Below are positions 42,282-60,062 of a stretch of 64,000 nucleotides of DNA, piece by piece. The notes under the pieces were generated by a model. It saw only the letters and a program-made list of their open reading frames with translations. It was not told the origin of the DNA and ran no database searches. The translations under genes and the position numbers were made by a program. The stretch is from Elusimicrobiota bacterium (lineage in GTDB: Bacteria > Elusimicrobiota > Elusimicrobia > 2-01-FULL-59-12): assembly GCA_041660185.1 (NCBI GenBank), contig JBAZWU010000001.1:338313-402312 (forward strand). Direction: 5' to 3'. The stretch's first letter is position 1; the number at the start of each line of letters is the position of its first letter.

Positions 42282-43368
42282 GCGCGAGCGCTTTATGGCT
42301 CAAAAACGACAGTTTTTCCTTCCCGTCGATCACCGCCGCCAGTCCCTCGCCCAGCGCTTTGGGTTGTCCGGGTTCGACGAGCAACGCCGCATCGCCCGCC
42401 ACATCCGGGATCGAACCGGTCCGCGTCGTCACGACCGGTTTCCCGGAGGCCATGCTTTCGATCAAAACATAGCCAAACTGTTCCTGCCATTTGGGCGTCG
42501 GGCGGCTGGGCAGAACAAACACATCCGCCAGGTTGTGAAGCGCCGAAATGTCTTCGTAAGGGACAAAAGGATGAACGCGAATCAGCTCTGGATAACGGTC
42601 CTGGGCCTGTTCCAGAACCGGTTGAAGAGGACCCGCTCCGACAAAAAGAAAACGCAGACGCATCGCTTCCCGCCCGCGATTCAGGGAAGGAATGCACTCG
42701 AGCAGGTCCAAAATCCCCTTTTCCGGGACAAATCGTCCGATGAAAAGCACAACGTAATCATCCGGAAGGATCCCCAGCTGGATCGCCAGTTTCGGGTCTT
42801 TGGGGGCTGGGACAAATCGTTGAAGATCCACGGACATCGGGATCACAGCGATGCGGTCGGGTGAGACACCTTCCTCCCGCAGCATTCGGGCGGAAGTTTC
42901 CGTTACGGCTAAAAAGCCGTCGGCCTCACGCATGACGGCTCGTTTCCGTAAATGGCGCAAGGGATGAAGCTCTCCCGTGTGAAGCAAGTTCTCCCAGACC
43001 GTCAGAACCAACGCCGTCCGCTGTTTGCGTTTCAATCGGAGGCACTGATAGGTCATCGTCGAGTGCAGTTCCGCCGCGTGCAGGATGTCTGCATCGCCCA
43101 CCGCTTTTTTCAGATTCAAAAGTCCGTAACTGCGGCCCAACGTCCAACTCAAGGCTCGGTTGTAAAAAATCGCTGCCGATGGATTCCGTTTTCCCAGTGT
43201 TTCCCCCCAGACTCCGGTTTTCTCGATTGAAATATTGGGGAGGGTGATAGGCTGGGTATAAAACTGCCAATGGGCGCCGATGGCTGAGAAAGGGTGTTTG
43301 GCCGCTACGGGAACATACGATTGAAGTTCCCAGGGATTCAAGAAGGGGCCTCGCACGAAGGCGACTTT
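42190..43368 (-). CDS. glycosyltransferase family 4
   Basis: FVPEKGI..GYVLIESMASGKPVV motif. Start set at MKVAFVRG. Confidence 0.8.
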   Translation of the reverse strand, partial: KVAFVRGPFLNPWELQSYVPVAAKHPFSAIGAHWQFYTQPITLPNISIEKTGVWGETLGKRNPSAAIFYNRALSWTLGRSYGLLNLKKAVGDADILHAAELHSTMTYQCLRLKRKQRTALVLTVWENLLHTGELHPLRHLRKRAVMREADGFLAVTETSARMLREEGVSPDRIAVIPMSVDLQRFVPAPKDPKLAIQLGILPDDYVVLFIGRFVPEKGILDLLECIPSLNRGREAMRLRFLFVGAGPLQPVLEQAQDRYPELIRVHPFVPYEDISALHNLADVFVLPSRPTPKWQEQFGYVLIESMASGKPVVTTRTGSIPDVAGDAALLVEPGQPKALGEGLAAVIDGKEKLSFLSHKALARAQQLFSAERNAPLIESFYQSALAHSRRRR

Positions 43369-44705
43369 CATGAGATCTCCGTCTTTGGTTTTGAGGAGGA
43401 TCGTCCGATGGCCAGGTAACAAGCCAATAGCAGATCGAGGCTGTTCACGAAGAGGACATCGACGCTGTTGTGCGCGAGGAATGCCATGACGCTGATCGCG
43501 GCCCCCCAGGCAAGGATGTCGCGGCTAGCCATGAGCGATCCGAGAGATGTCCCCGCCAACAAGGCCATCCCCAGCGCCCACAATAAAAAGCCGATCCCGC
43601 CGTATTCAATCAGGACCTGGAGGTAAATGGAATGAAGATGCTGCCAAAAATCGATCCGTTTCATAAACGTCAATTCGAATTTAAAGAATTGTCGAGAGTC
43701 TTCGTCAAGAAACTGGGGCAAACACGCCAGGTATTTCCCCGGGCCTAGACCCACCCAGGGATGCGCCCGAATGACCTGATAAGCGGCCCGCCAATAGATG
43801 GGCCGTTGCGCGGAGCTAAGCAACCGCTCCGTCTCAATAGACGCGGCCGGCGTGGACACGGGGACCTTATTCGACAACGAGCCCAATCCGGGAAAATGAT
43901 GAATCGCAAGGATCGGGAGCCCCGCCGAGCCAACGATCCAGAGGAGAACGAGGAGAACAGGTACTCTCTGCGTCATCTTTGGTGTGATCCATTGTGTTCC
44001 GGCCGCGAGAATCGCCACGCCCGCCAACAGACCCGCCCAAGCCCCCCGGGAGTATGCTGCCAGAAAGGCGATCATCATCAGGACAGCCCCTATCCATAAG
44101 ATTCTCCGGAGGTTCCCTCGCTCGAGATAAGCGGTCGCAAAACTCACCGGCATGACCAGGGATAGAAAAGCTCCTTGAATGTTGTGCTGCCGGAAAGGTC
44201 CAACGGCCGCCCGGTAATCGCCGCCCGAATGGGCGAATTGCCAAATTCCGAAGACGGATAGGAGGCTCCCCATCCACAGAAGAACGCGGCTATAGCGGAT
44301 CGTAAAGGAAGGGGATTCACGGGCCGCCAGGGAGGCGAGGAAAATAAAAAACAGGAATTCCATCCATCGCAACGGCCCCCGTACATTCCCGCCCAAATGG
44401 ATCGCCATCATCGCGGTGAAGAGAAAGAAACCCGACCATACGAGAATTTCCGGCAGGCTGAATATCTTCAAGACCGCCGGTACCGCGCGACTCGGTCCGA
44501 TGTGGGCCATCCAGGCGAGTGCCGCCAAGGCGCAAAAATAGTCGATCGGGGACAGACGCGGAAGCGGTCCCAGGGAAAAGCTGAAGTCCACAGGGACTGC
44601 CAACGCCATTAAGAGGATCCACAGGCCCGGCGAGAATTTCAGGAAGCGGGACAAGTTAGAAGCGAAAGGCTCGAAGACGAGAGAATTTATATCGAATGAT
44701 TTCAT
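43368..44705 (-). CDS. O-antigen ligase/polymerase family membrane protein (Wzy_C domain)
   Basis: About 11 TM helices and a YSRGAWAG motif in a periplasmic loop. Start uncertain. Confidence 0.65.
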   Translation of the reverse strand: MKSFDINSLVFEPFASNLSRFLKFSPGLWILLMALAVPVDFSFSLGPLPRLSPIDYFCALAALAWMAHIGPSRAVPAVLKIFSLPEILVWSGFFLFTAMMAIHLGGNVRGPLRWMEFLFFIFLASLAARESPSFTIRYSRVLLWMGSLLSVFGIWQFAHSGGDYRAAVGPFRQHNIQGAFLSLVMPVSFATAYLERGNLRRILWIGAVLMMIAFLAAYSRGAWAGLLAGVAILAAGTQWITPKMTQRVPVLLVLLWIVGSAGLPILAIHHFPGLGSLSNKVPVSTPAASIETERLLSSAQRPIYWRAAYQVIRAHPWVGLGPGKYLACLPQFLDEDSRQFFKFELTFMKRIDFWQHLHSIYLQVLIEYGGIGFLLWALGMALLAGTSLGSLMASRDILAWGAAISVMAFLAHNSVDVLFVNSLDLLLACYLAIGRSSSKPKTEIS

Positions 44706-45547: not shown

Positions 45548-46729
45548 TTATAGCGGTCTGCCTCCGGACGTGCAAGTTAACCGGTGGTAAAGGGCCATTC
45601 TCTGCTTCAGGAAAGCGGTGCTGGAAAAATGAGTTCGCGCATATTCCTGGGTCGTGCGGCGCAGACCTTCCATCCGTTCGGGCGACATCATCCGGTTGAG
45701 TTGCGCCCAGAAGTCAGCCGGGTCTCCCGGGGCATACCGTTCCCCGTTGATCCCGGGAACAACGATCTCCCGTAATCCCCCCGCGTCACTGACCAGAGCC
45801 GGGATCCCCCAGGCGTTTGCCTCCACCACGGCCAGCGGAAAGTTCTCGTAACACAGGGACGGCATGACAACCGCGGCGGCATCGCGAAGAACTCTTTCCT
45901 TCTCCAGGCTTTTGAGGAAACCCATATAGGAAATGTGCCCGCCGGAGGCGGCCTGGACCTGCGCCAACAGCGGTCCGGTCCCGGCGATCTTCAGACCCAG
46001 CCGCCGCTGGGGGTTCGTTCGAAAAAGATCCACAAGCCAATCGATGCCCTTTTCACGGGAAAGTCTCCCCAGGTAAAGAACATAGGGCTGCGGAGGCGAA
46101 GGAGGATCGACCGGCATCACGGGGATGAAATGGCCCTGGATTTCGATGCGATCGGCCGTCCAGCCGCGGGCAATATATTTGTTTTTGAGAAACTCGGCGG
46201 GTGCGATGAAGGCATCTACGTCGTCATACCAATGACGCCTGGCCGACAGCCACGCGTGGCATGCCAGAGCAGCAGACGCCAGGCGGCTGTCCCGGTAGCA
46301 GCCGCGAACAATTCCGGGCCAATAGTTTCCCCCCGCGCAGCGCTCGCAGATTTCCTGGCGCGGCGTCAGAAATAAACCGTTCAAGCAGAGCGGACGGTAG
46401 TTGTGCATCGTCAGGCATGTCCTGGCTCCCAGGGCTTTCGCTCTCGAAAAAAGGCGCGGAGATAGAAGCGGCCAAAGATTATGTGCGTGGACGATGTCCG
46501 GCCGGAAGCGCCGCAGCAGGTCTTCCAGGCGCCCCTCGAAGCCGCCGCCGGCGGCGGATAGGGCGGCCGCGATTTTGCCGGAAAAGCCGGGATCACTGCG
46601 GACTTGAAAAAGCTGCAGCTCAAGTTCCGTTCCTCGCAGAGCGTTGACTTCATTGGCCACACAGGCATCCTCGCCGCCGCTGACCGAATAGGCGTTATGG
46701 ACGATGAGGATCTTGAGGGGTTGTGTCAT
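45548..46729 (-). CDS. glycosyltransferase family 4
   Basis: GRLSREKGIDWL..ENFPLAVVEANAWGIPAL motif. Confidence 0.8.
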   Translation of the reverse strand: MTQPLKILIVHNAYSVSGGEDACVANEVNALRGTELELQLFQVRSDPGFSGKIAAALSAAGGGFEGRLEDLLRRFRPDIVHAHNLWPLLSPRLFSRAKALGARTCLTMHNYRPLCLNGLFLTPRQEICERCAGGNYWPGIVRGCYRDSRLASAALACHAWLSARRHWYDDVDAFIAPAEFLKNKYIARGWTADRIEIQGHFIPVMPVDPPSPPQPYVLYLGRLSREKGIDWLVDLFRTNPQRRLGLKIAGTGPLLAQVQAASGGHISYMGFLKSLEKERVLRDAAAVVMPSLCYENFPLAVVEANAWGIPALVSDAGGLREIVVPGINGERYAPGDPADFWAQLNRMMSPERMEGLRRTTQEYARTHFSSTAFLKQRMALYHRLTCTSGGRPL

Positions 46730-48414
46730 TTCGGATCGGTCTCCGGGGGTGTTTCTCGCAGCACGGGATTAAATGCCAATCCGATCAGTATCCACAGGAA
46801 TATCCCCTTAAAGGCATTTTCGAGCGTATTGTCCGTGATCATGTGTACCAAAACGTATACGATGCCTGCCCCAACCAGTAACAACCTTGAAAAGATCCAG
46901 GGGTCCTGCCGGCTGGAAAAAAGGCGTTGCGTAATGCCCCGAAGGACCCATCCCTGCAGAAGAATAAAGGCCAGCAGGCCGATGATTCCCAGACGGTAAA
47001 GGATGGCGATCCAGGAGTTGTGCGGATCGTATCGTCGGGGTGAATTAAGCCACCAAACAACCTGCGGAGGCAGGTACAGTTTTCCAAATGGGATCCCCAG
47101 GAGGATCCTGGCCGTGCGGTGAAGCTGATGCTTGAAAGAGACATCCGGTGTTTCGTTAGATGGAACCAGATGGAGTACGATTTTTTTGTCACTCAGGCCA
47201 TCGCCGGCTGGTTCGATCAACACCTCGGGCCCTTTAGAACGTTTGAGATGGGCTGGCAGCTTGTAATGGGTCAGGTCTTTCCGGTGGAGATGATTTGAAA
47301 AAAGGCCGATGGAGAATACCTCTTCGATGGCGTCTTGCCACATGAGAAACCGGGTGATGACGTTGGGCGAATTCCCGATGTCCGTGAAGGTGGATAGCTC
47401 ATCAAACACATCCACAACACGGTGCTCTGCCTTCTGGACGATGAGAACCTGTCTCGGAACAGTCGCCGGTGGAGTAAAGGCTGGTGGAACAGAGGCCGGG
47501 GGAGTAGAGGCTGGTGGAACAAAGGCTGGGGGAGTAGAGGCCGGGAGGGTGGATGCCGGTGGAGTAGAGGCCAGTGGGGTGGCAGCCGATGGGATCGAGG
47601 GCCTTTGACCGAGCTTTGGGAGGCTCCAGAGAAGAAGCATGGACCCGCCGGCGATGACGGTGATGGTCCGCAGGCTGTGCAGGGCAATAGGAGTAAATGA
47701 ATTGAGTCGCATGAGCATCAGCGCCAGGAAACAAAATCCACAGGCGAAGCCGGTCCAGGCCGAGCGAACCAACTCCGACAAAATGGCCGAGAAAATGATG
47801 ATGCTCCAGAGAGTGTCTTTTAAGTTAGTCACTGTCATCTGGCGGATGGCCAGCAGAGAAAGTAACGCCAGCGAAAGGCCCAGCGAACTGCCTGCTCCTT
47901 GCATGAGGCTTGAGGTCAGCTGAAGGTGCGGCACGGCCACCGGCAGGCAGATCCGGAGGGCGTTCAGGAGAGCGGCGATGGCTCCTATTTTCAATATCCC
48001 ATCGAGCCGGCGGCGAGTCAAGGGAGTTCGGCTGACCAAAAGGATAGCCACGCTGTAATAGACGAGGGCGGAATCACGCAGTACATTGAGGATTGGAAAA
48101 TGCAGGACGCCCCAATAGAAAGAGACACAGCCAACACCGAGAAAAAGCCCCCACGTCCAGCGCACCGGAGTCGGAAGCGCGGTGCGATAGCTTCCGGGAT
48201 TTGTGAGTTGCCGCCCAAAAATCCTGAGCGTCCACAGCAGTAAGGCAAATTCCGTGATATAAACGGGGACTGTCCCGATCGAAATGTGGAGGTAAGCGAA
48301 CTCCCGGTTGGCGAGCAGATACCCGATCAACAGGAAGAGAATCCCGTAAGCCTCCTCCCAGAGAAAGGCCGCTAGACAAACAGCAAACGCCGTTGCAGTG
48401 ACATATACCGGCAT
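46726..48414 (-). CDS. O-antigen ligase/polymerase-like membrane protein with internal Pro/Thr/Ala-rich linker and periplasmic domain
   Basis: Multi-TM N-terminal half with an RSAWTG motif, an (ASTPP)n linker, a soluble domain and a C-terminal TM pair. Confidence 0.55.
   Translation of the reverse strand: MPVYVTATAFAVCLAAFLWEEAYGILFLLIGYLLANREFAYLHISIGTVPVYITEFALLLWTLRIFGRQLTNPGSYRTALPTPVRWTWGLFLGVGCVSFYWGVLHFPILNVLRDSALVYYSVAILLVSRTPLTRRRLDGILKIGAIAALLNALRICLPVAVPHLQLTSSLMQGAGSSLGLSLALLSLLAIRQMTVTNLKDTLWSIIIFSAILSELVRSAWTGFACGFCFLALMLMRLNSFTPIALHSLRTITVIAGGSMLLLWSLPKLGQRPSIPSAATPLASTPPASTLPASTPPAFVPPASTPPASVPPAFTPPATVPRQVLIVQKAEHRVVDVFDELSTFTDIGNSPNVITRFLMWQDAIEEVFSIGLFSNHLHRKDLTHYKLPAHLKRSKGPEVLIEPAGDGLSDKKIVLHLVPSNETPDVSFKHQLHRTARILLGIPFGKLYLPPQVVWWLNSPRRYDPHNSWIAILYRLGIIGLLAFILLQGWVLRGITQRLFSSRQDPWIFSRLLLVGAGIVYVLVHMITDNTLENAFKGIFLWILIGLAFNPVLRETPPETDPK
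47467..47600. repeat. in-frame 15-bp tandem repeat (~9 units) encoding (A/P)STPP pentapeptides
   Basis: ggtggaacagaggcc / gggggagtagaggct units are visible in the sequence. It lies within the CDS 46726..48414. Confidence 0.65.
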
Positions 48415-48453: not shown

Positions 48454-49257
48454 TCAATGACGGCGTCCTCCATAAGTGGCCAACAGCTTCAGATAGCAAA
48501 AGATCGTGCGGGTAACCCGGATTTTACTGTCTGCACCCCGGTTCTCGTAATGCAGAGTAAACGGGACCTCCGCCGTGCGCGCGCCTTCCCGCGACACCTT
48601 CAGCAAGAGTTCCGTTCCCCCCGGGAATCCCGTCTCATTAATCAGGGGATCGTGATAGCGGCTGTAGGTCCGCTGAAGAATACCCACCCGGTAGACACGG
48701 AAACCGTTTGTATACGAAAGGGTGCCCGGCACATGAAAACCCAATCGGAAAATGAGATTGGCGACTTTGCTGAAGAGACGCCGCTTGGGCGGAATGCCCG
48801 AAGCCTTGCCGCCCGGCATCGAATAGGAGCACGTGACCACATCATACCCTTCCATCAGTTTCTGAACCATGGACGGGAAATAAGCCGGCGAATGCGTGTT
48901 GTCCGCGTCAAGAGAAATGACCAGGTCCTGGGGTTGCGCATGGAGGACAATCCACGTGTAGCCGGTATTGAGAGCGGCGCCGTAGCCTTGGTTGGTCGCG
49001 TGGCGCAAATGGCGCAGCGGGACGCGCGGAGACAGTTCCTGGACCACGGCGGGTGTTCCATCCCTGGACCCGTCATCCACGAGCACCACTTCGTACGGCA
49101 TGCCCATCGACCGCGCGACCTCATCAATATCAGGGATGAGTCGCCGCAGGGCGGTCTCTTCATTGTAGGCGGGTAGTAAGATATAAAGCTTTGAATTCGG
49201 ACTATCGGGCGTTGTCATTTTTCCTCGCTTCGTAAATCTTCCAGTGCGGTAGCTCAA
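48454..49257 (-). CDS. GT2 polyprenyl-phosphate sugar synthase (Dpm1/ArnC-like)
   Basis: LYILLPAYNEE..VVLVDDGSRDGT and a C-terminal amphipathic anchor, typical of dolichyl/undecaprenyl-phosphate mannose or glucose synthases. Confidence 0.8.
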   Translation of the reverse strand: MSYRTGRFTKRGKMTTPDSPNSKLYILLPAYNEETALRRLIPDIDEVARSMGMPYEVVLVDDGSRDGTPAVVQELSPRVPLRHLRHATNQGYGAALNTGYTWIVLHAQPQDLVISLDADNTHSPAYFPSMVQKLMEGYDVVTCSYSMPGGKASGIPPKRRLFSKVANLIFRLGFHVPGTLSYTNGFRVYRVGILQRTYSRYHDPLINETGFPGGTELLLKVSREGARTAEVPFTLHYENRGADSKIRVTRTIFCYLKLLATYGGRRH

Positions 49258-50617
49258 AGACGATCTGGGTGAACTGGGCGGCGTGGGCGGTGTCGATCGG
49301 ACATTCGTCGCGGGTAATGAGCCAGCGTTTGGCGTGCGTAGAGGAAACGGGTTCCCCCTTGTTCAGGACCGTCACTTGTTGCGTGTTGCCCGTAAAAATC
49401 TCCAGGGCGGTCGCCGCTTCGGTACACGGTGACATGATATACGCGTCAATATCCTTGTCAGGCCATTGAGAAGAAAGCCAGCGGACGGTTGTCCCGATCT
49501 CGGCCTGTCGGGACAGGCGCGGGATAGCCACATGAAAGACAACGCCGGCGGCCATGAGGATCGACATCGGCAAAACGACGTTCCGAAAGAACGGGTCCAG
49601 ACGCGGCCATAGGCGGATCATGATCTCGGTATTGAGGACGATGCAGCCGCAGGCCATCACCATGGCTGGCGCCCATAAATAGGTGGCGATCCCCCAGGGA
49701 ATCAGGAGAGCCAGGTAACAGGCCAGTGAGCAGGGCCAGAGGAATCGGGCCAGCCGCGCGTTCAAATCCTTCTGTTTCGTCCAATCGAGAAATATCAAAA
49801 GGATGGTCACGAGAATCAAGCCTGCCATCAGATAGACCATGGTCGGCTGATGTCCGAGGCTTTGCACCAGTCCCCGGATATCAGTCGAATATCGAGAGGT
49901 ATAGGAATCGGAACGCTTCAGGAACACCAGCCCCATGACGGTCGACAACGTGGCCCAGGCGAGGATCCATACGGCGCGCTGTTTTTTCGGAGCGTTGGCA
50001 TCGGAAACCAGGGAAACAAAAGCCCAGGGCGCAACGGCCAGCGTGGTCGGCTTGGCCAATACGCCTAGAAGGAAACTCGTGAACCCGCTGCACTGCCATA
50101 ACCACCACCGGACCGAACGGCGATCCTCGTGTTGAGCCGATGTCAATGCGTAGAGCGCCCATCCGCCGAACCCGATAACGAATTTTTCCTGCAGAGAAAG
50201 GAACACGATCAAGTTGTACAGGGGCGTGCTAGCCAGAAGCAAGAAGCCGAAGAAATAGGATCCGATCGAGCGGGTTTGCGGCGGGAGTTGCCGGCGCAGG
50301 ATCAGCGTCCAGGGCCAAAGGAACAATCCCACCAGAATAAGGGTGAACAGGTAGAACAGTTTGGGCGAATTCGAAAAGGTCCCGTAGCAGAGGTAAAGAT
50401 AGGCGATGTAAACAGGACGAAAGATCACATTGACGGAATAACGGTGAAGAAGGCCGACGATCGAGATGTCTTTCCAGGAGGTCTTCAGCAGCTGCAGAGT
50501 CTGGGCGTCGTCCATCAGTCCCCAGGAAAGCGGGAGAAAGATCATCGCCGTCAGAAGGCTGCCGAGGAGAAGGAGAAAGGCCCAGGGAAAAAGTCTCGTG
50601 ATAAACGGTTTGATCAT
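49202..50617 (-). CDS. GT-C fold glycosyltransferase (ArnT/PMT-like, polyprenyl-P-sugar dependent)
   Basis: About 12 TM helices with a DD motif in the first loop (SWGLMDDAQT). Start set at MIKPF, directly abutting the upstream stop. Confidence 0.55.
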   Translation of the reverse strand: MIKPFITRLFPWAFLLLLGSLLTAMIFLPLSWGLMDDAQTLQLLKTSWKDISIVGLLHRYSVNVIFRPVYIAYLYLCYGTFSNSPKLFYLFTLILVGLFLWPWTLILRRQLPPQTRSIGSYFFGFLLLASTPLYNLIVFLSLQEKFVIGFGGWALYALTSAQHEDRRSVRWWLWQCSGFTSFLLGVLAKPTTLAVAPWAFVSLVSDANAPKKQRAVWILAWATLSTVMGLVFLKRSDSYTSRYSTDIRGLVQSLGHQPTMVYLMAGLILVTILLIFLDWTKQKDLNARLARFLWPCSLACYLALLIPWGIATYLWAPAMVMACGCIVLNTEIMIRLWPRLDPFFRNVVLPMSILMAAGVVFHVAIPRLSRQAEIGTTVRWLSSQWPDKDIDAYIMSPCTEAATALEIFTGNTQQVTVLNKGEPVSSTHAKRWLITRDECPIDTAHAAQFTQIVFELPHWKIYEARKNDNAR

Positions 50618-51888
50618 TTCATCCACGGATACGGCTGCAGACTGTCCCCCTGGCTGGTCGAGTCGAAAACGGGTTTGATGATCACGCGTCGAAGAATATT
50701 TCGTCCGGCGAGCAGCGCAACCAAAACGAGAAAAATAGCGGCGAACCGGGGAGTCCAGCGATGGGAGAGACGGATCTTCAGACCATAAATGGCCGCGGGA
50801 ATGATCAAAATATTGAACCACTCCATGGGCAGCGTGTTGTACCAGAAGGGGTAGCGCCAGAAGAAGAAATAGTTGATCCAATAGCCGATCCCGGCGACCG
50901 CGAGCATCGTCGCGGGAACCTGAAGAGGTCCGGAGGACGATTCCTTACGATTGAAAAATGACCGGGCCGCGTACACCACGCAGAAACCGATCGAAAGGGC
51001 GATCAGCAGCCAGGTCACAAACCCCCACCGGGCGTATTCGATCGCCCTTCCCTGCGCCGCAAATGGATCGGAAGCGGTTTTACGCATCAGCACAGGGATG
51101 ATGTAGGAAAATTCGCTGAAAAGGATGGAGGGAGCGCGAAAGGCATAGGCCAGAAGGTCCTCCCGGTTGTGGAACAGACCGAAGGCCCAACCGATGGCTG
51201 TCAGGAATACCGTCGCGGGTACGAAATAGAGAACGGCGCAAAGGACCAATTCTCTGATTTTAAGCGCGATGGAATCGCCGCGGTTTTCGAACAGGAGTTT
51301 ATAAAGGAAGAGGCCCGGAAGCATGGCCAGAAATTGCCCTTTGCATGAATAGGCGAAGCCAAAGGCGATCATGGCCCAGCGCGGGTGGTGTTTCTCCAAA
51401 AGGAGCCCGGCGATAAAACAGAGCAAACCAGGTGTCATGCCATTGACCTGAATGGGATAAATCAGGATGAGCGGGATCGTAATCCAGACCGAAAGGACCA
51501 GCAGGGCGATCACGGGAATCTCCCAGGGACGCATCCACGTTTCGTCAAATAGTTTGAAGAAGAACCAGAAAAACAGTCCCACAACGGCCAGCGAATAGAC
51601 GAAATTGTAATAACGCATGGGTTTGAGCGATCGGCCGTGGAAGGCGAACGCGGTGGTGGCCAGGATGACGTGGGGACCGTTTTCGACGAAAGGGTCGCCC
51701 TGGTAAATGTGAATGTCCCGGTCGGCGAACATCCGGTAAGGGACGCCGAGGTAGATGTGTTCCGAGACCCGGTCGACGCTCAGATGCGGAAGGGCATAGG
51801 CGAAGATCCCCAACATCGCCGCCAGCAGACCGGCCAAAGAAATCCATTTGAGACGTGTTTGAAGCGGAAGTGATTCAGATGAATTCAT
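50614..51888 (-). CDS. polytopic membrane protein (possible GT-C/DUF2029-like glycosyltransferase)
   Basis: About 11 TM helices. Sits between a Dpm1-like GT2 and the GT-C gene. No diagnostic motif recognised. Confidence 0.45.
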   Translation of the reverse strand: MNSSESLPLQTRLKWISLAGLLAAMLGIFAYALPHLSVDRVSEHIYLGVPYRMFADRDIHIYQGDPFVENGPHVILATTAFAFHGRSLKPMRYYNFVYSLAVVGLFFWFFFKLFDETWMRPWEIPVIALLVLSVWITIPLILIYPIQVNGMTPGLLCFIAGLLLEKHHPRWAMIAFGFAYSCKGQFLAMLPGLFLYKLLFENRGDSIALKIRELVLCAVLYFVPATVFLTAIGWAFGLFHNREDLLAYAFRAPSILFSEFSYIIPVLMRKTASDPFAAQGRAIEYARWGFVTWLLIALSIGFCVVYAARSFFNRKESSSGPLQVPATMLAVAGIGYWINYFFFWRYPFWYNTLPMEWFNILIIPAAIYGLKIRLSHRWTPRFAAIFLVLVALLAGRNILRRVIIKPVFDSTSQGDSLQPYPWMK

Positions 51889-52601
51889 ACAGGGACTCTC
51901 TTTCCATAGGTGCGCAGATCCCACCACAACGCCCAGAACTCTTTCATGGCCCGGAAAATAACGCTGAGATTGGCGCCGCTTTGGACGCCGGCGCGTCTCG
52001 GGCGATGAGAAACGCCAACGGTGGCGATCCGGTACCCCATCCGGCGGGCCTTGACCAGAATCTCGGCATCAATCAAAGCGCCTGTCGTAATCATCTGGAT
52101 CTCATTGAAGAGGGACCGGCGATAAAGTTTGAACGCGCAGTCGATGTCCGGAATATCCAATCCCATGAAGACCCGGAGGGCGGCCGCAAAGATCTGCGCG
52201 TTTAATTTCCGGTGCCAGGGATCCGCGCGCCGGACGCGGACGCCGGAGATGATATCCGCTTGCGAGGTCAGCTCAACCAGGGACGGCAGTTCATTCAAAT
52301 CGAATTGGCCATCCCCGTCCGAATAAAAGACCCACGGAAACCGGGCGGCTCGAAACCCGGATTTGAGTGCCTCTCCATACCCGCGATTCGTTGGATGGCG
52401 GACCAGCTTCAAAGCCGGTCTGGATTGGGCCATCGATTGAACAATCTCCGGCGTGCGATCGCAGCTGCCGTCGTCCACAATAATGACCTCGTACGATTCG
52501 GCGACCTGCGCGGCGACTTGGGACGCCTCGTCGATGACGCGTTCCACGTTCGTCTCTTCATTGTGACAAGGAAAAAACAGCGATAAGCCGTCGAGTTTCA
52601 T
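51885..52601 (-). CDS. GT2 polyprenyl-phosphate sugar synthase (Dpm1-like), second copy
   Basis: LSLFFPCHNEE..VIIVDDGSCDRT. Confidence 0.8.
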   Translation of the reverse strand: MKLDGLSLFFPCHNEETNVERVIDEASQVAAQVAESYEVIIVDDGSCDRTPEIVQSMAQSRPALKLVRHPTNRGYGEALKSGFRAARFPWVFYSDGDGQFDLNELPSLVELTSQADIISGVRVRRADPWHRKLNAQIFAAALRVFMGLDIPDIDCAFKLYRRSLFNEIQMITTGALIDAEILVKARRMGYRIATVGVSHRPRRAGVQSGANLSVIFRAMKEFWALWWDLRTYGKRVPV

Positions 52602-52690: not shown

Positions 52691-54235
52691 ATGCGTACCC
52701 TGATCCTGATTGCCTCCAGAGACCATAAGGACCGTCTCCTGGCTCAACTCACGCCGCTTCGTCAACTGTTTGTCGATCGCCCCGATGTTTCCTGCCTTAT
52801 CATGGATGACGCCAGCCAGGACGGAACCTTTGAGGCTGTTTCCCGCTTCTTGACCCAGTATCCTTGGCCGACCTGCCTGATTGTACGCCATCGTCATCCG
52901 TTGGGGCCCGGAGGCAACCAGAAAGTCGGGATTCGCCACGCCATGGAGCGGAAGGTCGATGTCGTGCTGACAATCCTTGGCGGCTCTCCCGCCACGCTGT
53001 CTGCCATCCCCGGGATGTTGGACCGGTTCCAGGCGGATGATCGAGCGGATTATTTATTGGCTACAGAACGGTTCGGATGGCGGTCTCCGCTGGCTTGGCC
53101 CCGGTGGTTGCGTCAACGAGGGCTCTCTCTGATTGAAAACCGGTTTTCGGGGGTGCGCATTCCGGATTGGCATGGACCCCTACGGATCTACCGCCTGAAC
53201 GCATTGCGTGAAATCGCCTTTGAGCTCAATACGCATGAGGCCCATTTTCATACGGAGATTCTTCTGCAGTTGATTTCCGCCGGCCGCCGCCGGTTGAGAA
53301 CCTTCGATGTGCCGCTCCATTCCGACCGTCTTCCTTCGATGGCGCGGGCGGGGTCGCTGCAGACGATCAAGGCCGCGCTGAAATTCCGACTGCAGCGCTA
53401 CAGCCTTTTCTATGATTTTCGCTACCATCCTGAGCTGATCATCCCCGGGCCGAAAGCGGCCGCTCCCTCAAGGCCGCACTACACCGACAAAGTGGGATTC
53501 GACAGTCCTCACGCGCTCGTCTGCAACAGCGATACGCTGGTACCCCCCAAAAGCCGTGTGCTGGATCTGGGTTGTTCCGTGGGGTATGTGGCCCGGCACT
53601 TGACGGAGAAGAAGGGGTGCTCAGTGGTCGGAGTCGACAGACTGGATCCCTCCCAGGTCCTCACGGGGTTTGAGTACCACCGTCTTGACCTCGAGCAGGA
53701 CCTCGAACGGTTATGCCAAATCATCGATCACGGGGAATTTGATGTGATCCTGATCCTTGATGTCCTGGAGCATCTCAGCACGCCGGAATTGTTTCTGTTG
53801 ATGCTGACCCGGCGCCGGTACCAGAAAATTCCTCGTATCATTGTGAGCACCGGGAATGTGGGTTTTCTGGTGGTCCGGTTGATGCTGCTTGCCGGTTTTT
53901 TCAATTACGGGAATAAGGGGATCCTCGACATCACCCACAAGCGGCTCTTTACCGTTCGAACCTTTAAGAATCTTCTGGACCAGACCGGTTTTGCCATTCT
54001 CAGGCGGTACGGATTTTCCCTCCCCTGGAAGGAATTGGGGCTGCCCCGGACACTTTGCCGGCCGCTGGAAAAAATCCATGGAGGGTTTGCCCGGTGGCGT
54101 CCCACTCTTTTTGCCTACCAGGTTCTCTACGTCACCATGCCGATCACGCTGCCGGCCAGGCTGATCGCAGGAGAAACAGCTATCACAGGAGACAATAATC
54201 CTTCCCGATTGACTGGTAGCGAAATGCGGCGTTAA
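52691..54235 (+). CDS. bidomain protein: N-terminal GT2-like glycosyltransferase fused to C-terminal class I SAM-dependent methyltransferase
   Basis: N-terminus ILIASRDHKD..IMDDASQDGT (GT-A DxD). C-terminus VLDLGCSVGY..VVGVD..ILILDVLEHL methyltransferase motifs I-III. It is the only + strand gene in the island. Confidence 0.65.
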   Translation: MRTLILIASRDHKDRLLAQLTPLRQLFVDRPDVSCLIMDDASQDGTFEAVSRFLTQYPWPTCLIVRHRHPLGPGGNQKVGIRHAMERKVDVVLTILGGSPATLSAIPGMLDRFQADDRADYLLATERFGWRSPLAWPRWLRQRGLSLIENRFSGVRIPDWHGPLRIYRLNALREIAFELNTHEAHFHTEILLQLISAGRRRLRTFDVPLHSDRLPSMARAGSLQTIKAALKFRLQRYSLFYDFRYHPELIIPGPKAAAPSRPHYTDKVGFDSPHALVCNSDTLVPPKSRVLDLGCSVGYVARHLTEKKGCSVVGVDRLDPSQVLTGFEYHRLDLEQDLERLCQIIDHGEFDVILILDVLEHLSTPELFLLMLTRRRYQKIPRIIVSTGNVGFLVVRLMLLAGFFNYGNKGILDITHKRLFTVRTFKNLLDQTGFAILRRYGFSLPWKELGLPRTLCRPLEKIHGGFARWRPTLFAYQVLYVTMPITLPARLIAGETAITGDNNPSRLTGSEMRR

Positions 54236-55425
54236 CGCGTCTTATCGTTGAGCGAGGGGTTGCTGGCAGGGTAGGAACTCTTCAGATAAAGGATCCAGAC
54301 CGCATACAGCGCCATCAACGGCAGGTAGGTATTGAACAGCTCGAAGATCTGGTTGACGGGTCGGGGAAAAGAGCTGGTTCCTTGAGGAAACATCGCCATC
54401 ACGCCCGCCAGCGGGATCAGGGCTTGCCATCGGTACTTCTGCAGTATCCATAGGGATGGAAGCAGAAAGATCGCATAGAGGTATGGCGGCACCCGTGGAT
54501 CCACCAATCCAAAAACGACGATGAAAAACAGAATCCGCCAACGGAGGTCCGGATCGGCGTTTCGTTTTCGTATGCGTTGGTACGCTCGCCAACTTAAACC
54601 GCTCACGCCAAGCACTAAGACCGCATAGAGGGCATCCCCGGCGCGTGCCGGAAGGCTCCAGGGGATCGGCCACGTACGCACGGCGTCCACCAGTTGGCCT
54701 GAAAAAGTCAGGGTGCTCGGATTGTTCACCCCGACGCTCCGCTTGCCCAGCGTGGCCAATAAGCGCATGTAATCGCGGAAAAGATCCGGATAAATCAAAT
54801 AATTTAACGAATACAGAATCACGAACGCTGCGGCGGAGAGAAACAGTTCCTTCCAGCGCGGCTTGTCGTCGATGAACAAGAGAAGTCCCAGAAGCAGGAT
54901 GAGATCCGACTTGATCTCCGCCATGAGGACCACCGCCGCGCAATACACCCATATCCGCTTGCGCAAGAGGGCCGCCAATCCCGCCCACAGGACCACTTGT
55001 TGGAATCCGGCGATATTCCCGGAAGCGACGTCGTAAAAAAGGGAGCCGTTAAAAGCCAACGCGATGAAGAGGACCTGGAAGGGGTCCCTGATGCTCAAAG
55101 GCAGAAAATGACGGTGCCAGATGCGAAAGATATAGAAGAATCCCCCCAGCTTCAAAACGGTCCACAGCCAATTGGCTACGTTTGCGGAGAGGTAGATCCA
55201 AGGACGGAACAAGTAGAGGACGAGGGGCGGATAGGACAAGGGCCATCCGTCACGAATGTAGGGATTGGCCCCGGTGGCAAAAAATTCCAGTGTGAATTGG
55301 CGATAGCAGCGGGAGTCCCAGCCGTAGCCGCCGTTGCGGAGAAGAAGGAACGCCAGAAGCAGCCCGACAAACGCCCAAGCGCCAAGCAGCCATCGTGTCT
55401 CTGAAGACATGTTCTTTATCGTCAT
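54232..55425 (-). CDS. polytopic membrane protein (possible GT-C/DUF2029-type glycosyltransferase or polymerase)
   Basis: About 11 TM helices. No signature motif recognised. Confidence 0.45.
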   Translation of the reverse strand: MTIKNMSSETRWLLGAWAFVGLLLAFLLLRNGGYGWDSRCYRQFTLEFFATGANPYIRDGWPLSYPPLVLYLFRPWIYLSANVANWLWTVLKLGGFFYIFRIWHRHFLPLSIRDPFQVLFIALAFNGSLFYDVASGNIAGFQQVVLWAGLAALLRKRIWVYCAAVVLMAEIKSDLILLLGLLLFIDDKPRWKELFLSAAAFVILYSLNYLIYPDLFRDYMRLLATLGKRSVGVNNPSTLTFSGQLVDAVRTWPIPWSLPARAGDALYAVLVLGVSGLSWRAYQRIRKRNADPDLRWRILFFIVVFGLVDPRVPPYLYAIFLLPSLWILQKYRWQALIPLAGVMAMFPQGTSSFPRPVNQIFELFNTYLPLMALYAVWILYLKSSYPASNPSLNDKTR

Positions 55426-56600
55426 ACTGCCGCGGATTTTAGAACATTTTCATACAACTGCGCTATCTCCGAGGCTTCTCGGCCTGCTTCAAAGCGCTCC
55501 CGGCAATCGACAAAACCCTCTTCGCCCAGCCGCCGGGCCGATCCCCACTCGCGCAGGCATTCTTCAACGGCGGCGGCCAGGGCGGCCGGATCCCCGGGCG
55601 GGATGAGCTTTCCGGTCCGGCCGCTGCGGACCACTTCCGGGAGGCCGCCCACATCCGAAGCGATCACCGCGCGCTTCTGGCTTAAGGCTTCGATGGCGAC
55701 GTAGGACAAGCCTTCTTCTAGGGAGGGGATCACGACGATGTCGAGTTCCTTGAGCGCGGGACGAAGGTCTTCTTCCCAGGGCCGGATGGCGACGGCGGTT
55801 TCAAGTCCCCGGCGGCGGATCTCCGTTTGCAGGCGCGGATCCGAGCGGGCCGCGCCCAGGATGAAAAGACGGATCGGCAGAAGACGGTGGGTCATGAACA
55901 CCGCGGCGTCCAGAAAGATCGAGCTGCCTTTTTCGGGACTCCAGCGGCCGACGAAGCCGACGCGGAACGTCTCCGGGTGTTCGCGCGGAGGAGGCGCGTC
56001 CTTAAACCAGGAAGCATCGATCCCGGGATAAATCACGCACGCGCGTTTCCCCGTCAACCCGTGCCGGGGTCCATAGGTCTTTAACAGGTACTGGGAAATA
56101 AAGACATTGCAATCAAACCCCTTCCGGATGAGACGGTTCAGGACGTTGAGCAGGCCGATCTTCCAGGGGGTGACCGATGTGATCAGGCGTCCCTCAAAGG
56201 TCGAAATCCTCGAACGGAAGAGACCGCCGGCCGCCAGCAAAGCGGCAATGACATCGCTTTGAATAAAAAAGGAATGGACGAGGTCAAAACGCTTTTGGCG
56301 GCACAAGGCGGCGAGTGAGCCGATGAACGGCAGATACCCGCACCGTTTATACCGTCCGTCGATGATGATCCGTGCCGGGGTGTCCCGGAAATACGTCTTT
56401 AAGACATCGGGAATTTTGGTGCCGATGACAAGCGTGGCTTCGATGCAGTCCGGGTCGATTTTTCCAAGAAGTGTCCTGAGGTGGTTGGCGGTTCCTCCCA
56501 GACCGTTGAGACCGACACAGAGGTAGAGGACCTTCAGCGGCGGATGCGGCGCCGGTAACGGCGTTTCATCCCGATGGATTTTACTTGAGGTCCAAGGCAT
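55422..56600 (-). CDS. glycosyltransferase family 4
   Basis: GRWSPEKG..EEGLSYVAIEALSQKRAVIASDVGG. Confidence 0.8.
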   Translation of the reverse strand: MPWTSSKIHRDETPLPAPHPPLKVLYLCVGLNGLGGTANHLRTLLGKIDPDCIEATLVIGTKIPDVLKTYFRDTPARIIIDGRYKRCGYLPFIGSLAALCRQKRFDLVHSFFIQSDVIAALLAAGGLFRSRISTFEGRLITSVTPWKIGLLNVLNRLIRKGFDCNVFISQYLLKTYGPRHGLTGKRACVIYPGIDASWFKDAPPPREHPETFRVGFVGRWSPEKGSSIFLDAAVFMTHRLLPIRLFILGAARSDPRLQTEIRRRGLETAVAIRPWEEDLRPALKELDIVVIPSLEEGLSYVAIEALSQKRAVIASDVGGLPEVVRSGRTGKLIPPGDPAALAAAVEECLREWGSARRLGEEGFVDCRERFEAGREASEIAQLYENVLKSAAV

Positions 56601-57513
56601 TGAAGTCCTCGGTCCGGTTCAGCAGGATCCGGCCAAAGCCCGCTACAATGCCGAATCCGATGGCGATCCGGTCGCGGTCAAGCCGAAGGACTCCGGAGAG
56701 CAGCGTGCCGATCAGTTGTCCGAGGCTGGCCCAGCAGAACGCTGGGACGGATAGCCGGTATTTCCGGACAAACCGGTAGCGGTTGATCACGTCCGAAATC
56801 CCGAAGGCCATGAATTTGCCTTTGCGGAAACCATGATGATGATGGATGACCCTGGCTTCGGAGAGCATCATGAAGCGGCAGTTCTTTCCCAGGGAGAGGC
56901 AAAAATCAAGGTCGTCGAAGTGACCGTGCCCGCGGTAACGCTCTTCGTAGCGGTGGTCGCGGAACACCTCGGCCCGCCAAACGGTCGCTCCGCCGCAGAG
57001 CCATTCCACCGGGGTATCCTGGACGACCGGAAACAAAATCGTGTTGAACCCGGAAGGCAGGATGCGTCCACCCCGGCCGCCAGCGAGTCCGAATACCCGG
57101 CGGAAAACAGTCGCCTCGGTGGGAACATTGTTGACGATATGGAACGAACAGCCGGCGATGGCCGGTTCCGCATGAGACCAGAAGCGGAGCATTTCCTCCG
57201 TCGTGTTGGGAGTGAGCTCCAGATCGTCGTCGAGAAATCCGACCAGGGTGGTTTCCTTGGGGACGTTGGCCAGGCCAGCGTTGCGCTGCCGGGTTAGTCC
57301 CGGCGGGTAGACCGGGAGATAGGACACCGGTAAATTGGGATAGGCTTGAATAAAGTCCTGCACATGATCTTCTCCGCCATCGATAATGATCACATGATCT
57401 GGTTTTCGCGTCTGGGCCGCGAGGCTCCGGAACAGTCGGTGAAGGTCCTCCCGGCGATTGCGCGTGGGAATCAGGAAAGTCAGATGGGGGGATGCGCTTG
57501 TCTCGGAACTCAT
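56581..57513 (-). CDS. glycosyltransferase family 2
   Basis: LTFLIPTRNRREDL..VIIIDGGED. Confidence 0.75.
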   Translation of the reverse strand: MSSETSASPHLTFLIPTRNRREDLHRLFRSLAAQTRKPDHVIIIDGGEDHVQDFIQAYPNLPVSYLPVYPPGLTRQRNAGLANVPKETTLVGFLDDDLELTPNTTEEMLRFWSHAEPAIAGCSFHIVNNVPTEATVFRRVFGLAGGRGGRILPSGFNTILFPVVQDTPVEWLCGGATVWRAEVFRDHRYEERYRGHGHFDDLDFCLSLGKNCRFMMLSEARVIHHHHGFRKGKFMAFGISDVINRYRFVRKYRLSVPAFCWASLGQLIGTLLSGVLRLDRDRIAIGFGIVAGFGRILLNRTEDFNALDLK

Positions 57514-58487
57514 GAGGATCGGCTCCCGGGTGATTTGAGATAGTCTTCGAGAAGTTGTGCCATGAAAATTTCAGTGTCTTCCATGGATTCCTGCGTCGCT
57601 CCGCCGATATGAGGCGTGATGAGAAGATTGGAATGGGATGCCGCGTATCGAACCAGAGCCTCTCGACGGGGATCAAACCCCGGGCGATGTTCGTTTGCGA
57701 GAACGTCGAGCGCGGCCCCCGCCAGGCGGCCGGATTGCAGGCTCCGGAGAAGCACGGACTCATTGATGAGGCTGCCCCGCGACGTGTTGATGAAATAGGC
57801 GCCTTTTTTCATCCGTCCCAGTTCCTTGGCTCCGAAGAGATCGTGTGTGGAGGGATTGGCGTCGACGTGAATCGAAACCACATCGGATTCCTTCAGGACT
57901 TTCTGAAAGGACACCCATTCCAGCCCCGGGATATTGAAACGAAGACGCGGATCGGTGCCCAACAGCCGGCCAAAGAGGGGCCTGCCGAGACGGGCCATCA
58001 TTTTCCCCAGCCTCCCGAGGCCGACAAGCCCGAGCGTTAAAGAGGATGTTTGCCGCCCGATGAATGGAGAACGCCTCCAGTGCCCGGCGCAAACATCCTC
58101 CATCGAGGCATGACTATGGCGCAGCAATGAAAGCGTCAATCCAATCGCGTGTTCGGCTGTCCCTGTGACGGTCCGCAGAAAGCCGCTCTGTCCCTTCAAA
58201 CTCAGGACAGGAATGCCCCGGCGGCGGCATTCGTTCTGATCGATGTGATCCAAGCCGGTTGTCGGAGACACGATACAGCGGAGCCTTGGGGCCGCCGCAA
58301 GGACGTCCCGGTCAATACGGTGTCCCAGCCGGACCCAGAGAATATCCGCGTTCCGGATTCTGGCCAGCAATTCCCGTCTCGTAAAAGGTCCCTGAATCAG
58401 CCGCCCGAGCTTGCCGATCCGGCGCGACGCTTCCTTGGAAAATGAAAGTGGCTCGGCCAACAGAATAACGCGTTTGTGTTTAGTCAT
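57510..58487 (-). CDS. D-isomer-specific 2-hydroxyacid dehydrogenase (phosphoglycerate-dehydrogenase-like)
   Basis: NAD-binding GLVGLGRLG and catalytic-domain blocks. Start trimmed to MTKHKRVIL (ATG at 58485-58487). Confidence 0.8.
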   Translation of the reverse strand: MTKHKRVILLAEPLSFSKEASRRIGKLGRLIQGPFTRRELLARIRNADILWVRLGHRIDRDVLAAAPRLRCIVSPTTGLDHIDQNECRRRGIPVLSLKGQSGFLRTVTGTAEHAIGLTLSLLRHSHASMEDVCAGHWRRSPFIGRQTSSLTLGLVGLGRLGKMMARLGRPLFGRLLGTDPRLRFNIPGLEWVSFQKVLKESDVVSIHVDANPSTHDLFGAKELGRMKKGAYFINTSRGSLINESVLLRSLQSGRLAGAALDVLANEHRPGFDPRREALVRYAASHSNLLITPHIGGATQESMEDTEIFMAQLLEDYLKSPGSRSS

Positions 58488-59205
58488 GGCGGGCACGCAA
58501 GAGAATCGCCGCGAGTTGGAAGTCGAAGGGATGATCAATATTGATCGAGCGTTCACGCGGCATGAGGTACGGAATGATCTTATTCCCCACGAGAGAAGAC
58601 GCCCCGAACAGGATATGCCGTCTGACCAGATAAATCGCTCCATTTCGAACCAGGACGGGTTTGAATTCCTGACGTCTCTGGAAAGGAGTGGCTTTCTTGC
58701 CCAGCAGCGGTTTTACATAGGGGCCGGTGGTGACATACATATAATTCGGATGGGCGTTGTCCGCGACGTAAAAGGAGACGACGGAATCCGCCCGGGGATA
58801 TTTCTGCAAAAGGCCGATGCATCGGTCAATGTCTTCCGGGGTCCTGAGAGGGGCCGTTGGCTGCAAAGACATCACGGCGTCGACTTTGAGGCCGGTCCGG
58901 CGCTCGAAAAAAAGAGCCGCGTGTTGAAGCACGGACAGCGTACTGGCGCGGTCCGTCGCCAATCGGTGCGGCCGGAGAAAAGGAGTCGGACAACGCAGTT
59001 TTAGGGCGATCGCCCGGATACTCCTGGAATCCGTTGAAACCATATAATCCGTCAGCCGCCGGCTTTTCCGTGCAGCTTCGATCGAGTACTGAAGAAGCGG
59101 TTTACCGATCAGGCGCTTGATATTCTTGTGGGGAATCCCTTTGGACCCGCCTCGCGCCGGAATAATCGCAAGAATGATCGGGGAACGGCGAGCCGATGTC
59201 ATCAT
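58480..59205 (-). CDS. CMP-nonulosonic acid synthetase (NeuA/PseF/LegF-type cytidylyltransferase)
   Basis: AIIPARGGSKGIPHKNI signature of acylneuraminate cytidylyltransferases. Confidence 0.8.
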   Translation of the reverse strand: MMTSARRSPIILAIIPARGGSKGIPHKNIKRLIGKPLLQYSIEAARKSRRLTDYMVSTDSRSIRAIALKLRCPTPFLRPHRLATDRASTLSVLQHAALFFERRTGLKVDAVMSLQPTAPLRTPEDIDRCIGLLQKYPRADSVVSFYVADNAHPNYMYVTTGPYVKPLLGKKATPFQRRQEFKPVLVRNGAIYLVRRHILFGASSLVGNKIIPYLMPRERSINIDHPFDFQLAAILLRARHD

Positions 59206-60050: not shown

Positions 60051-60062
60051 TCAACTCTCCTT

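Follow-up and report, generated by a model that had tools for sequence, protein, structure and literature searches.

Four tightly packed genes in a 64-kb stretch of DNA (the window hereafter) from a metagenome-assembled genome (MAG) of an Elusimicrobiota bacterium can, with fair confidence, be regarded as a module for glycosylation in the periplasm, of the kind in which a polyprenyl-phosphate-sugar synthase is combined with a GT-C transferase. The genes lie on the minus strand within a glycan operon of about 16 kb and are transcribed in the order GT2-B, M2, M1, and GT2-A. A synthase plus GT-C interpretation had already been proposed for this locus (the sequence-only reading). It is supported by the affinities of the two family 2 glycosyltransferases (GT2s), by the fold of the models of the membrane proteins M1 and M2, and by the synteny that recurs among their relatives.

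Gene arrangement and the synthase-type enzymes GT2-A and GT2-B

The four open reading frames (ORFs) of the sequence-only reading were all confirmed at their positions on the minus strand. GT2-B (51885–52601, 238 aa) and GT2-A (48454–49218, 254 aa from the ATG at 49218, or 267 aa if the TTG at 49257 is used) are predicted to be anchor-less polyprenyl-phosphate sugar synthases. M2 (50614–51888, 424 aa) and M1 (49202–50617, 471 aa) are predicted to be orphan glycosyltransferases of the GT-C fold: the former has about 11 transmembrane (TM) helices and is devoid of a large soluble domain, and the latter has 11 TM helices and a C-terminal α/β domain that is predicted to be periplasmic. M1 and M2 are identical to the NCBI "hypothetical protein" entries WC859_01855 and WC859_01860, respectively, of an Elusimicrobiota MAG, where they are encoded on a contig of 475,699 bp. 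A longer ORF (49202–50881, 559 aa) is a spurious upstream extension of the M1 gene. All junctions had been described as 4-nt overlaps. This is correct for GT2-B/M2 and M2/M1, in both of which the overlap is ATGA, and incorrect for M1/GT2-A, where the ATG at 49218 gives an overlap of 17 nt and the TTG at 49257 one of 56 nt. The ATG is favored, because it is preceded by AGGA and agrees with the 258-aa ortholog in the closest syntenic locus (L001).

Both GT2s match PF00535 (GT2-A, 1e-23; GT2-B, 4e-28). In the PDB, the best relative of GT2-A is the dolichyl phosphate mannose (Dol-P-Man) synthase (DPMS) of P. furiosus (5mlz, 1.2e-21). Residues 9–245 of GT2-A are aligned with residues 23–242 of this enzyme, so that the alignment spans the whole catalytic domain and stops at 242, ahead of the TM domain, and the DADNTH motif of GT2-A (48892–48909) is placed over DADLQH. 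The best PDB relatives of GT2-B are ArnC (9hwj, 4e-15), followed by DPMS (5mlz, 2e-12) and the Synechocystis GtrB (5ekp, 5e-12), and its DxD-type motif DGDGQ (residues 95–99; 52305–52319) is aligned to DADLQ of DPMS and ArnC. For both proteins, the top NCBIfam models are all polyprenyl-phosphate glycosyltransferases, i.e., ArnC, the streptococcal PgfS (GtrB type), the mycobacterial PpgS, the haloarchaeal Dol-P-hexose transferase, and AglJ; GT2-B scores highest with ArnC (2e-20) and the haloarchaeal transferase (4e-20). Two of these models, PpgS and the haloarchaeal transferase, are short and anchor-less, and GT2-A and GT2-B cover them over nearly the full length. As a control, two other stand-alone GT2s of the window (56581–57513 and 41238–42281) were examined. 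They match none of the synthase families at 1e-6 and resemble EpsD and MftF, and thus the likeness to the synthases sets GT2-A and GT2-B apart. Judging from these similarities, GT2-A and GT2-B are probably polyprenyl-phosphate sugar synthases.

One feature expected of such enzymes is missing: no hydrophobic segment that could serve as a C-terminal membrane anchor was found in either GT2-A or GT2-B. The anchors in this family consist of two TM helices in GtrB and ArnC, a four-TM GtrA-like domain in the P. furiosus DPMS, and one TM helix in the yeast Dpm1; the human DPM1 is also without an anchor. Anchor-less polyprenyl-phosphate sugar synthases are known in M. smegmatis (Ppm1) and M. tuberculosis (PpgS), where separate membrane partners are encoded alongside (PMC3485146), and hence the missing anchor does not refute the synthase assignment. 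The label "Dpm1-like" given to these GT2s is therefore appropriate in that their closest relatives are DPMS, ArnC, and GtrB, not ordinary O-antigen GT2s, and inappropriate in that the Dpm1-like C-terminal anchor is absent.

Predicted fold and candidate active sites of M1 and M2

Neither M1 nor M2 gave a match in the Pfam scan at E ≤ 0.01 or in the NCBIfam scan. Both are very rare: M1 has nine relatives among 5.8 billion clustered proteins, profile search included, with seven further and more distant relatives in 185,579 GTDB species genomes, and M2 has 23 representatives among 1.84 billion clustered proteins. As had been noticed from the sequence, both are polytopic, with about 11 helices each. 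Their AlphaFold2 models are of high confidence (M1, pLDDT 81.6 and pTM 0.81; M2, pLDDT 89.8 and pTM 0.90) and have 11 TM helices in a 7 + 4 layout. The structural matches of M1 were Pmt2 (score 17.0), Pmt4 (16.4), ALG12 (16.0), ALG3 (14.9), PIG-M (14.7), and ALG9 (14.5), followed by ArnT (13.9), AftB (13.1), and PglB (12.9). Those of M2 were ALG12 (18.4), ALG3 (17.8), PIG-M (16.6), Pmt4 (15.3), AglB (15.2), and AftB (14.9). Independently, Foldseek placed ArnT and ALG12 at the top for M1, with the SEDS proteins FtsW and RodA only 22nd and 50th, at template-modeling scores of about 0.25. The sequence identity in the structural alignments of M1 and M2 was 7–15%.

The GT-C-A class is characterized by a conserved 7-TM module and by a first luminal loop made of two helices, the first of which bears the catalytic base (E35 in ALG12 and D71 in ALG3) (PMC13503287). 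In both models, a 7-TM module at the N-terminus precedes a variable module, and the first extracytoplasmic loop comprises two helices, with conserved acidic residues in the first of them: D36/D37 in M1 and E43 in M2. At the level of the models, M1 and M2 are shown to belong to the GT-C-A class, and this assignment is by predicted fold alone.

The acidic residues belong to conserved motifs. The first-loop DD motif previously pointed out for M1 is SWGLMDD (residues 31–37), and its position was verified (50507–50527, minus strand). WGLMDD is invariant in all 15 M1 homologs that possess the N-terminus, which derive from Elusimicrobiota, Omnitrophota, Planctomycetales, and a "Clostridia" MAG. In the model, D36 and D37 are located at the start of a helix (residues 32–48) that is the first after TM1, and from this position and the conservation they are candidate catalytic acids. 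All of the predicted cytoplasmic loops of M1 are rich in Arg and Lys, which puts the N-terminus inside and the C-terminal α/β domain (about 85 aa; residues ~385–471) in the periplasm. In M2, the corresponding motif is VDRVSE (residues 38–43; 51760–51777, minus strand; VDRxQE in the family). E43 is at least 90% conserved in the M2 family alignment and is located in a model helix (residues 40–55) right after TM1. As this is the helix that opens the first periplasmic loop, E43 is a candidate catalytic base, again on the grounds of position and conservation. The same loop contains a second motif, DPFVENGP (residues 65–72; 51673–51696, minus strand; DPFxENGP in the family), in which conservation reaches at least 90% at D65 and P66. 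The coordinates of both M2 motifs were verified.

At the sequence level, M1 and M2 could not be placed in any of the families that had been put forward for them (GT39, GT83, GT87, and DUF2029), as neither protein gave a match. The family profiles of GT22, GT58, GT50, GT39, GT83, and GT87 yielded no significant match to M1 or M2. When each family member (9 of M1 and 16 of M2) was scanned against Pfam at E ≤ 5, no consistent family emerged; one M2 family member matched PMT_4TMC at 6.5e-4. The M1 and M2 family profiles found nothing among all PDB sequences, and none of the three hhalign comparisons among M1, M2, and the GT87 protein of the window was significant. Furthermore, M1 and M2 neither match the Wzy_C profile nor have SEDS or WaaL (GT-C-B, users of undecaprenyl diphosphate (Und-PP) sugars) as their closest fold. 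Together with the GT-C-A fold of the models, this favors the earlier GT-C assignment over Wzy or a flippase. In comparison with the CAZy families that have a Pfam model (GT136, for example, has none and lies outside the comparison), M1 and M2 would then be new sequence families of a known enzyme kind, and they represent no new mechanism.

Gene neighborhoods, proposed pathway, and alternatives

A GT2 similar to GT2-A or GT2-B occurs within 2.5 kb of the M1 homolog in 11 of the 12 informative loci, which are distributed over four phyla, and the neighboring GT2s that were scanned against NCBIfam or Pfam are of the synthase type. This frequency indicates that the arrangement is more than chance. 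The loci with a GT2 beside the M1 homolog or at most 2.5 kb from it are L001/L002, L003, L005, L006/L007, L008, and L013–L017. In L001/L002, the order is methyltransferase, M2, M1, and GT2, the last being 77% identical to GT2-A. In L003, M2 and M1 are followed by a GT2 fragment, and in L005 a homolog of the 562-aa protein encoded next to the module is followed by M1, a methyltransferase, and a GT2. In L006, L007, and L008, two epimerase/dehydratase genes precede a GT2 of 231–237 aa, and then M1. The Omnitrophota loci L013 (8123–9265), L015 (3015–4013), and L017 (7539–8633) encode, 0.2–1 kb downstream of M1, a DPMS-type GT2 fused to the four-helix domain GtrA_DPMS_TM (PF04138, down to 7e-19), whereas the neighbor in L016 is a GtrB/ArnC-type GT2 with two C-terminal TM helices and that in L014 is a short form. 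The short GT2s of L001, L006, and L008 resemble ArnC, PgfS, PpgS, and AglJ. The GT2 of L005 is a weaker case: PpgS, PgfS, and the haloarchaeal transferase are ranked behind PgaC, and ArnC is not matched.

M2 co-occurs with M1 in the three closest loci only. Its other relatives are found in glycan clusters beside GT2 genes, and several of them adjoin a methyltransferase. The gene after the M2 homolog P0018 overlaps it by 4 nt and encodes a full-length GtrB/PgfS-type GT2 (289 bits), and the gene before another M2 homolog, P0014, also overlaps it by 4 nt and encodes a GT2 of 259 aa. As far as can be judged from the sequences, M1 and a DPMS-type GT2 form an evolutionarily conserved core, and M2 represents another GT-C family, independent of the first, which recurs beside such synthases. 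From this recurrent adjacency to DPMS/GtrB-type GT2 genes, we infer that M1 and M2 use a polyprenyl-phosphate sugar donor.

Two side observations were made in these loci. One concerns unannotated multi-TM proteins in L006 (4888–7361), L008 (4866–7361), and L011 (9311–10657) that have an acidic pair soon after the first hydrophobic helix (PFDDW, WADEY, and WTDEV). They showed no similarity to M1 or M2 in comparisons of hidden Markov models (HMMs), and their sequences suggest that they are additional unclassified GT-C-like enzymes. Unannotated membrane proteins encoded next to the M2 homologs (L011_448, L011_557, and similar ones) were likewise tested as distant M1 or M2 relatives, and no significant HMM match was obtained. 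The other concerns the two genes directly before GT2–M1 in L006 (7388–9297) and L008 (7387–9305), the most distant metagenomic M1 loci. They encode NAD-dependent epimerases/dehydratases, which hints at a modified donor sugar there (e.g., deoxy or pentose), in an Arn-like arrangement.

The pathway that we propose is as follows. GT2-A and GT2-B, as peripheral anchor-less GT-A enzymes, would draw on a nucleotide sugar to glycosylate undecaprenyl phosphate on the cytoplasmic side, as their family resemblance suggests. The lipid-linked monosaccharide would then reach the periplasmic leaflet via a flippase encoded outside the window, and M1 and M2 would pass the sugar to an acceptor, with D36/D37 and E43 as the respective putative bases. 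From the context, the acceptor would most probably be an Und-PP-linked or lipid A-core-linked polysaccharide of the surrounding cluster, since this cluster contains an initiating phosphoglycosyltransferase, GT4s, a GT2, WecG, and Wzy_C proteins, and LptF/LptG are encoded nearby. It is plausible, as suggested by the sequence-only reading, that the two synthases supply two different donors.

Several points weigh against this proposal. The case consists of sequence comparisons, predicted structures, and synteny, and the M1 alignment is shallow (nine sequences). The NCBIfam scores of GT2-A and GT2-B are 56–73 bits against equivalog cut-offs of 370–529, so far below these that neither a donor sugar nor orthology to a named synthase can be assigned, and we only infer the lipid acceptor. 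No GtrA, SMR, MATE, or Wzx-type flippase was found in the window by a six-frame scan for small multi-TM ORFs at two thresholds or by tblastn. Among the distant M1 loci, L019 has no synthase-like GT2 nearby, and L018 ends at the contig edge. Finally, the closest syntenic locus, L001, lacks GT2-B and has a methyltransferase before M2 instead, which means that the pairing of M2 with GT2-B is not fixed.

The last point leads to a single-donor scheme, which we regard as unlikely. GT2-A alone would be the lipid-sugar synthase, feeding both M1 and M2, and GT2-B would be an ordinary transferase of the cytoplasm, with the Und-PP-linked repeat unit as its substrate. One synthase can suffice for several transferases, as in mycobacteria, where one Ppm1 feeds many GT-Cs. 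L001/L002 indeed have a single synthase, the nucleotide collinearity of L001 with the window extends from 48461 to 51831 only, and a single GT2 fragment follows M2–M1 in L003; moreover, the similarity of GT2-B to ArnC and DPMS is moderate (49–73 bits). However, the best relatives of GT2-B are exclusively polyprenyl-phosphate glycosyltransferases, which is not the case for the control GT2s, and GT2-B is translationally coupled to M2 through the ATGA overlap. In addition, other M2 homologs are coupled to a GT2 of their own, including the full-length GtrB/PgfS type mentioned above, and two GT2s of M1 loci, the fragment downstream of M1 in L003 and the enzyme encoded close to M1 in L005, are closer to GT2-B than to GT2-A.

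It is quite improbable that M1 modifies not a polysaccharide but proteins, as an O-glycosyltransferase like PMT or the streptococcal PgfS/GT-C system, with Ser/Thr/Pro-rich periplasmic linkers such as that of the 562-aa protein as a possible target. The best fold matches of M1 are Pmt2 and Pmt4, and the neighboring 562-aa protein does have an (A/S)TPPA repeat linker, but the margin of Pmt2 and Pmt4 over ALG12 is negligible, and the linker lacks conservation. We give little credence to a more speculative scheme, in which M1 and M2 are the founders of two new GT-C families and no dedicated flippase is needed. The synthases would be tethered to the coupled GT-Cs, and the assembly, possibly an M1–M2 heteromer (cf. 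Pmt1–Pmt2), would itself bring the lipid-sugar to the other side of the membrane and attach two sugars in succession to a surface glycan or protein. That M1 and/or M2 are not lipid-monophosphate-sugar transferases at all, being instead Wzy-like polymerases, ligases, flippases, or non-catalytic GT-C-fold scaffolds like PIG-U, is very improbable, because their best fold matches are all catalytic GT-C-A enzymes using Dol-P or undecaprenyl-phosphate (Und-P) sugars, with SEDS far behind, an invariant acidic motif occupies the canonical catalytic position, the genes recur beside DPMS/GtrB-type synthases, and the cluster already has two separate Wzy_C-type proteins.

Genomic surroundings and comparison with known systems

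The module lies within a co-directional run that occupies the region between about 36.3 and 52.6 kb and constitutes the ~16-kb glycan operon. This run also encodes the weakly Wzy_C-like 562-aa protein, a GT4, a WecG/TagA-type GT26, a clear Wzy_C protein, more GT4s and GT2s, an initiating phosphoglycosyltransferase of the WbaP/WcaJ type, an epimerase, and a cupin. The initiating enzyme (37640–39028, minus strand) is a polyprenyl-phosphate hexose-1-phosphate transferase (Bac_transf, 1e-65; TIGR03025, 370 bits, above the cut-off of 296), and it is the probable source of the lipid-linked acceptor. The 562-aa polytopic protein (46726–48414, minus strand) resembles O-antigen ligases weakly, as Wzy_C matches only its C-terminal stretch (E = 0.005). 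It has a conserved RYDPHNS motif, and its orthologs adjoin M1/GT2 in L001 (35% identity) and L005 (39%). Its gene contains a 15-nt tandem repeat of 7.5 copies (47465–47577), which encodes a Ser/Thr/Pro linker of the (A/S)TPPA type. The protein was considered as a conserved substrate of M1, and this was reduced to a minor alternative, since the repeat linker is not conserved in the L001 or L005 ortholog.

A sugar-1-phosphate nucleotidyltransferase and a phosphohexomutase, which may supply an NDP-sugar, are encoded 12.5 kb from GT2-A, at the opposite end of this co-directional glycan cluster (33354–35898, minus strand; Pfam NTP_transferase plus hexapeptide, and PGM_PMM I–IV). These had been taken as GDP-mannose synthesis genes. 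Both enzymes exist, but the profile matches fall short of a mannose assignment: the best NCBIfam model is mannose-1-P guanylyltransferase for the former (239 bits against a cut-off of 440) and archaeal-type GlmM for the latter (258 bits against 439). As both matches are below the cut-off, the pair is ambiguous between mannose-1-P and hexosamine-type enzymes, and a link to mannose is possible and weak. The listed ORFs of the nucleotidyltransferase (33354–34502) and the mutase (34399–35898), both on the minus strand, overlap by 104 nt; because the profile matches of the nucleotidyltransferase begin at residue 40, its real start is probably downstream of the listed ATG.

Upstream of the module are a divergent GT2–methyltransferase fusion, a GT-C enzyme of GT87 (DUF2029), a GT4, a GT2, and nonulosonic-acid genes. 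The fusion protein (52691–54235, plus strand; 514 aa; PF00535, 1e-6; Methyltransf_23, 3e-12) is encoded divergently from GT2-B and convergently with the GT87 gene, with a 4-nt overlap of the 3′ ends. Its GT2 part has no relative in the PDB, and its methyltransferase part alone has PDB relatives. The GT87 enzyme (54232–55425, minus strand; PF09594, 1.7e-13) is encoded 1.6 kb upstream of GT2-B and 2.3 kb from the M2/M1 tandem. It is unrelated in sequence to M1 and M2, which are also unrelated to each other, and therefore three GT-C families are present within 6.2 kb. Further upstream (57510–62449, minus strand) is a nonulosonic-acid-type set: a NeuB/PseI-like synthase, a PseF-like cytidylyltransferase, a nucleotide-sugar dehydrogenase resembling UDP-ManNAc dehydrogenase, a SAM methyltransferase, and a 2-hydroxyacid dehydrogenase. 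In this set, all named equivalogs are below the cut-off, and the generic nucleotide-sugar dehydrogenase subfamily model alone passed.

LptF and LptG are encoded at 26.6–28.8 kb, which indicates that the organism is diderm and exports lipopolysaccharide. Adjoining them are a 1380-aa ORF (20813–24955, minus strand) with a partial match to SprA_N (2.5e-10; type IX secretion translocon-like) and, after it, a 503-aa ORF without a Pfam family (24925–26436, minus strand). A promoter and terminator scan of the 35.5–55 kb region gave counts equal to the shuffled expectation. With respect to flippases, L001 (11496–17047) and L005 (14964–21392) encode a Wzx-type flippase (Polysacc_synt) flanked by a GT4 and a GT2. 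In the window counterpart (39044–44705), the flanking genes are kept, and no Wzx is present there or elsewhere in the 64 kb; tblastn with the Wzx proteins of both loci also found nothing. The only small multi-TM protein of the window is an aquaporin, and the remaining multi-TM proteins, the GT-Cs aside, are a P-type ATPase, a histidine kinase, LptF/LptG, the phosphoglycosyltransferase, and the Wzy_C-type proteins.

Should biochemistry bear out these assignments, M1 and M2 would each become the founding member of a new CAZy GT-C family, in the way that GT136 was established with Citrobacter ORF12 in 2024, and the sequence space of enzymes that decorate bacterial surface glycans outside the cytoplasm would be extended into uncultured phyla that have received little study (Elusimicrobiota, Omnitrophota, and Planctomycetota). 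The WGLMDD signature and the recurrent coupling to a DPMS-type synthase could serve as annotation markers for genes that are now labeled "hypothetical protein". The relevance is thus to annotation and glycoengineering; the synthase plus GT-C scheme is well known, and current understanding is not challenged.

Among the known systems, ArnC/ArnT, which pairs an Und-P-L-Ara4FN synthase with a GT83 lipid A transferase, differs in several respects. The window has no genes for ArnA, ArnB, ArnD, or ArnE/F, and M1 and M2 do not match the PMT_2/GT83 profile. ArnC has about 320 aa, whereas the GT2s have 238 and 254 aa and no TM helices, and they score 56–73 bits against the cut-off of 529. The Dol-P-Man pathway of eukaryotes and archaea (DPMS/DPM1 with ALG3, ALG9, ALG12, PIG-M, and PMT; PMC13503287) includes the P. 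furiosus DPMS, which comes closest to GT2-A among proteins of solved structure. Its GT-Cs share the 7 + 4 TM layout with the models of M1 and M2, and their catalytic base occupies the helix of luminal loop 1 that corresponds to the position of the candidate bases of M1 and M2. ALG9 and ALG12 also carry a C-terminal extracytoplasmic domain, as M1 does. In contrast, the genes studied here are located in a bacterial polysaccharide cluster, the identity is 7–15%, and no GT22, GT58, GT50, or GT39 profile is matched.

In mycobacteria, the synthases Ms-Ppm1 and PpgS are anchor-less, as here, and several GT-Cs (Pmt, PimE, and Rv3779) consume the donors (PMC3485146). A Ppm2/Rv3632-like membrane partner is present there, while none was identified adjacent to the GT2s here, whose neighbors are the GT-Cs themselves. 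The Elusimicrobiota are a different phylum, and the organism is diderm (LptF/LptG). The likeness is at the family level only.

Three-component systems and new GT-C families have been described, including ORF12–15 of Citrobacter youngae with GT136 (PMC11127046). In these systems (GtrA/GtrB/Gtr* of Shigella and Salmonella, and GT136 of C. youngae), the scheme is the same: a synthase charges undecaprenyl phosphate, and a GT-C adds the sugar to the O-polysaccharide in the periplasm (PMC11127046). They are likewise located inside an O-antigen-type cluster, and GT136 likewise had no similarity to existing families. Differences are that they include a gene for a GtrA, SMR, or MATE flippase, which the 64-kb window does not, that GtrB has two C-terminal TM helices and GT2-A and GT2-B have none, and that two unrelated GT-Cs are encoded side by side here, 2.3 kb from a third one (GT87). 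By analogy, these comparisons support the view that the system would work like GtrB/Gtr*, ArnC/ArnT, or Ppm1/GT-C, i.e., that a familiar logic of surface decoration is carried out here by unfamiliar protein families.

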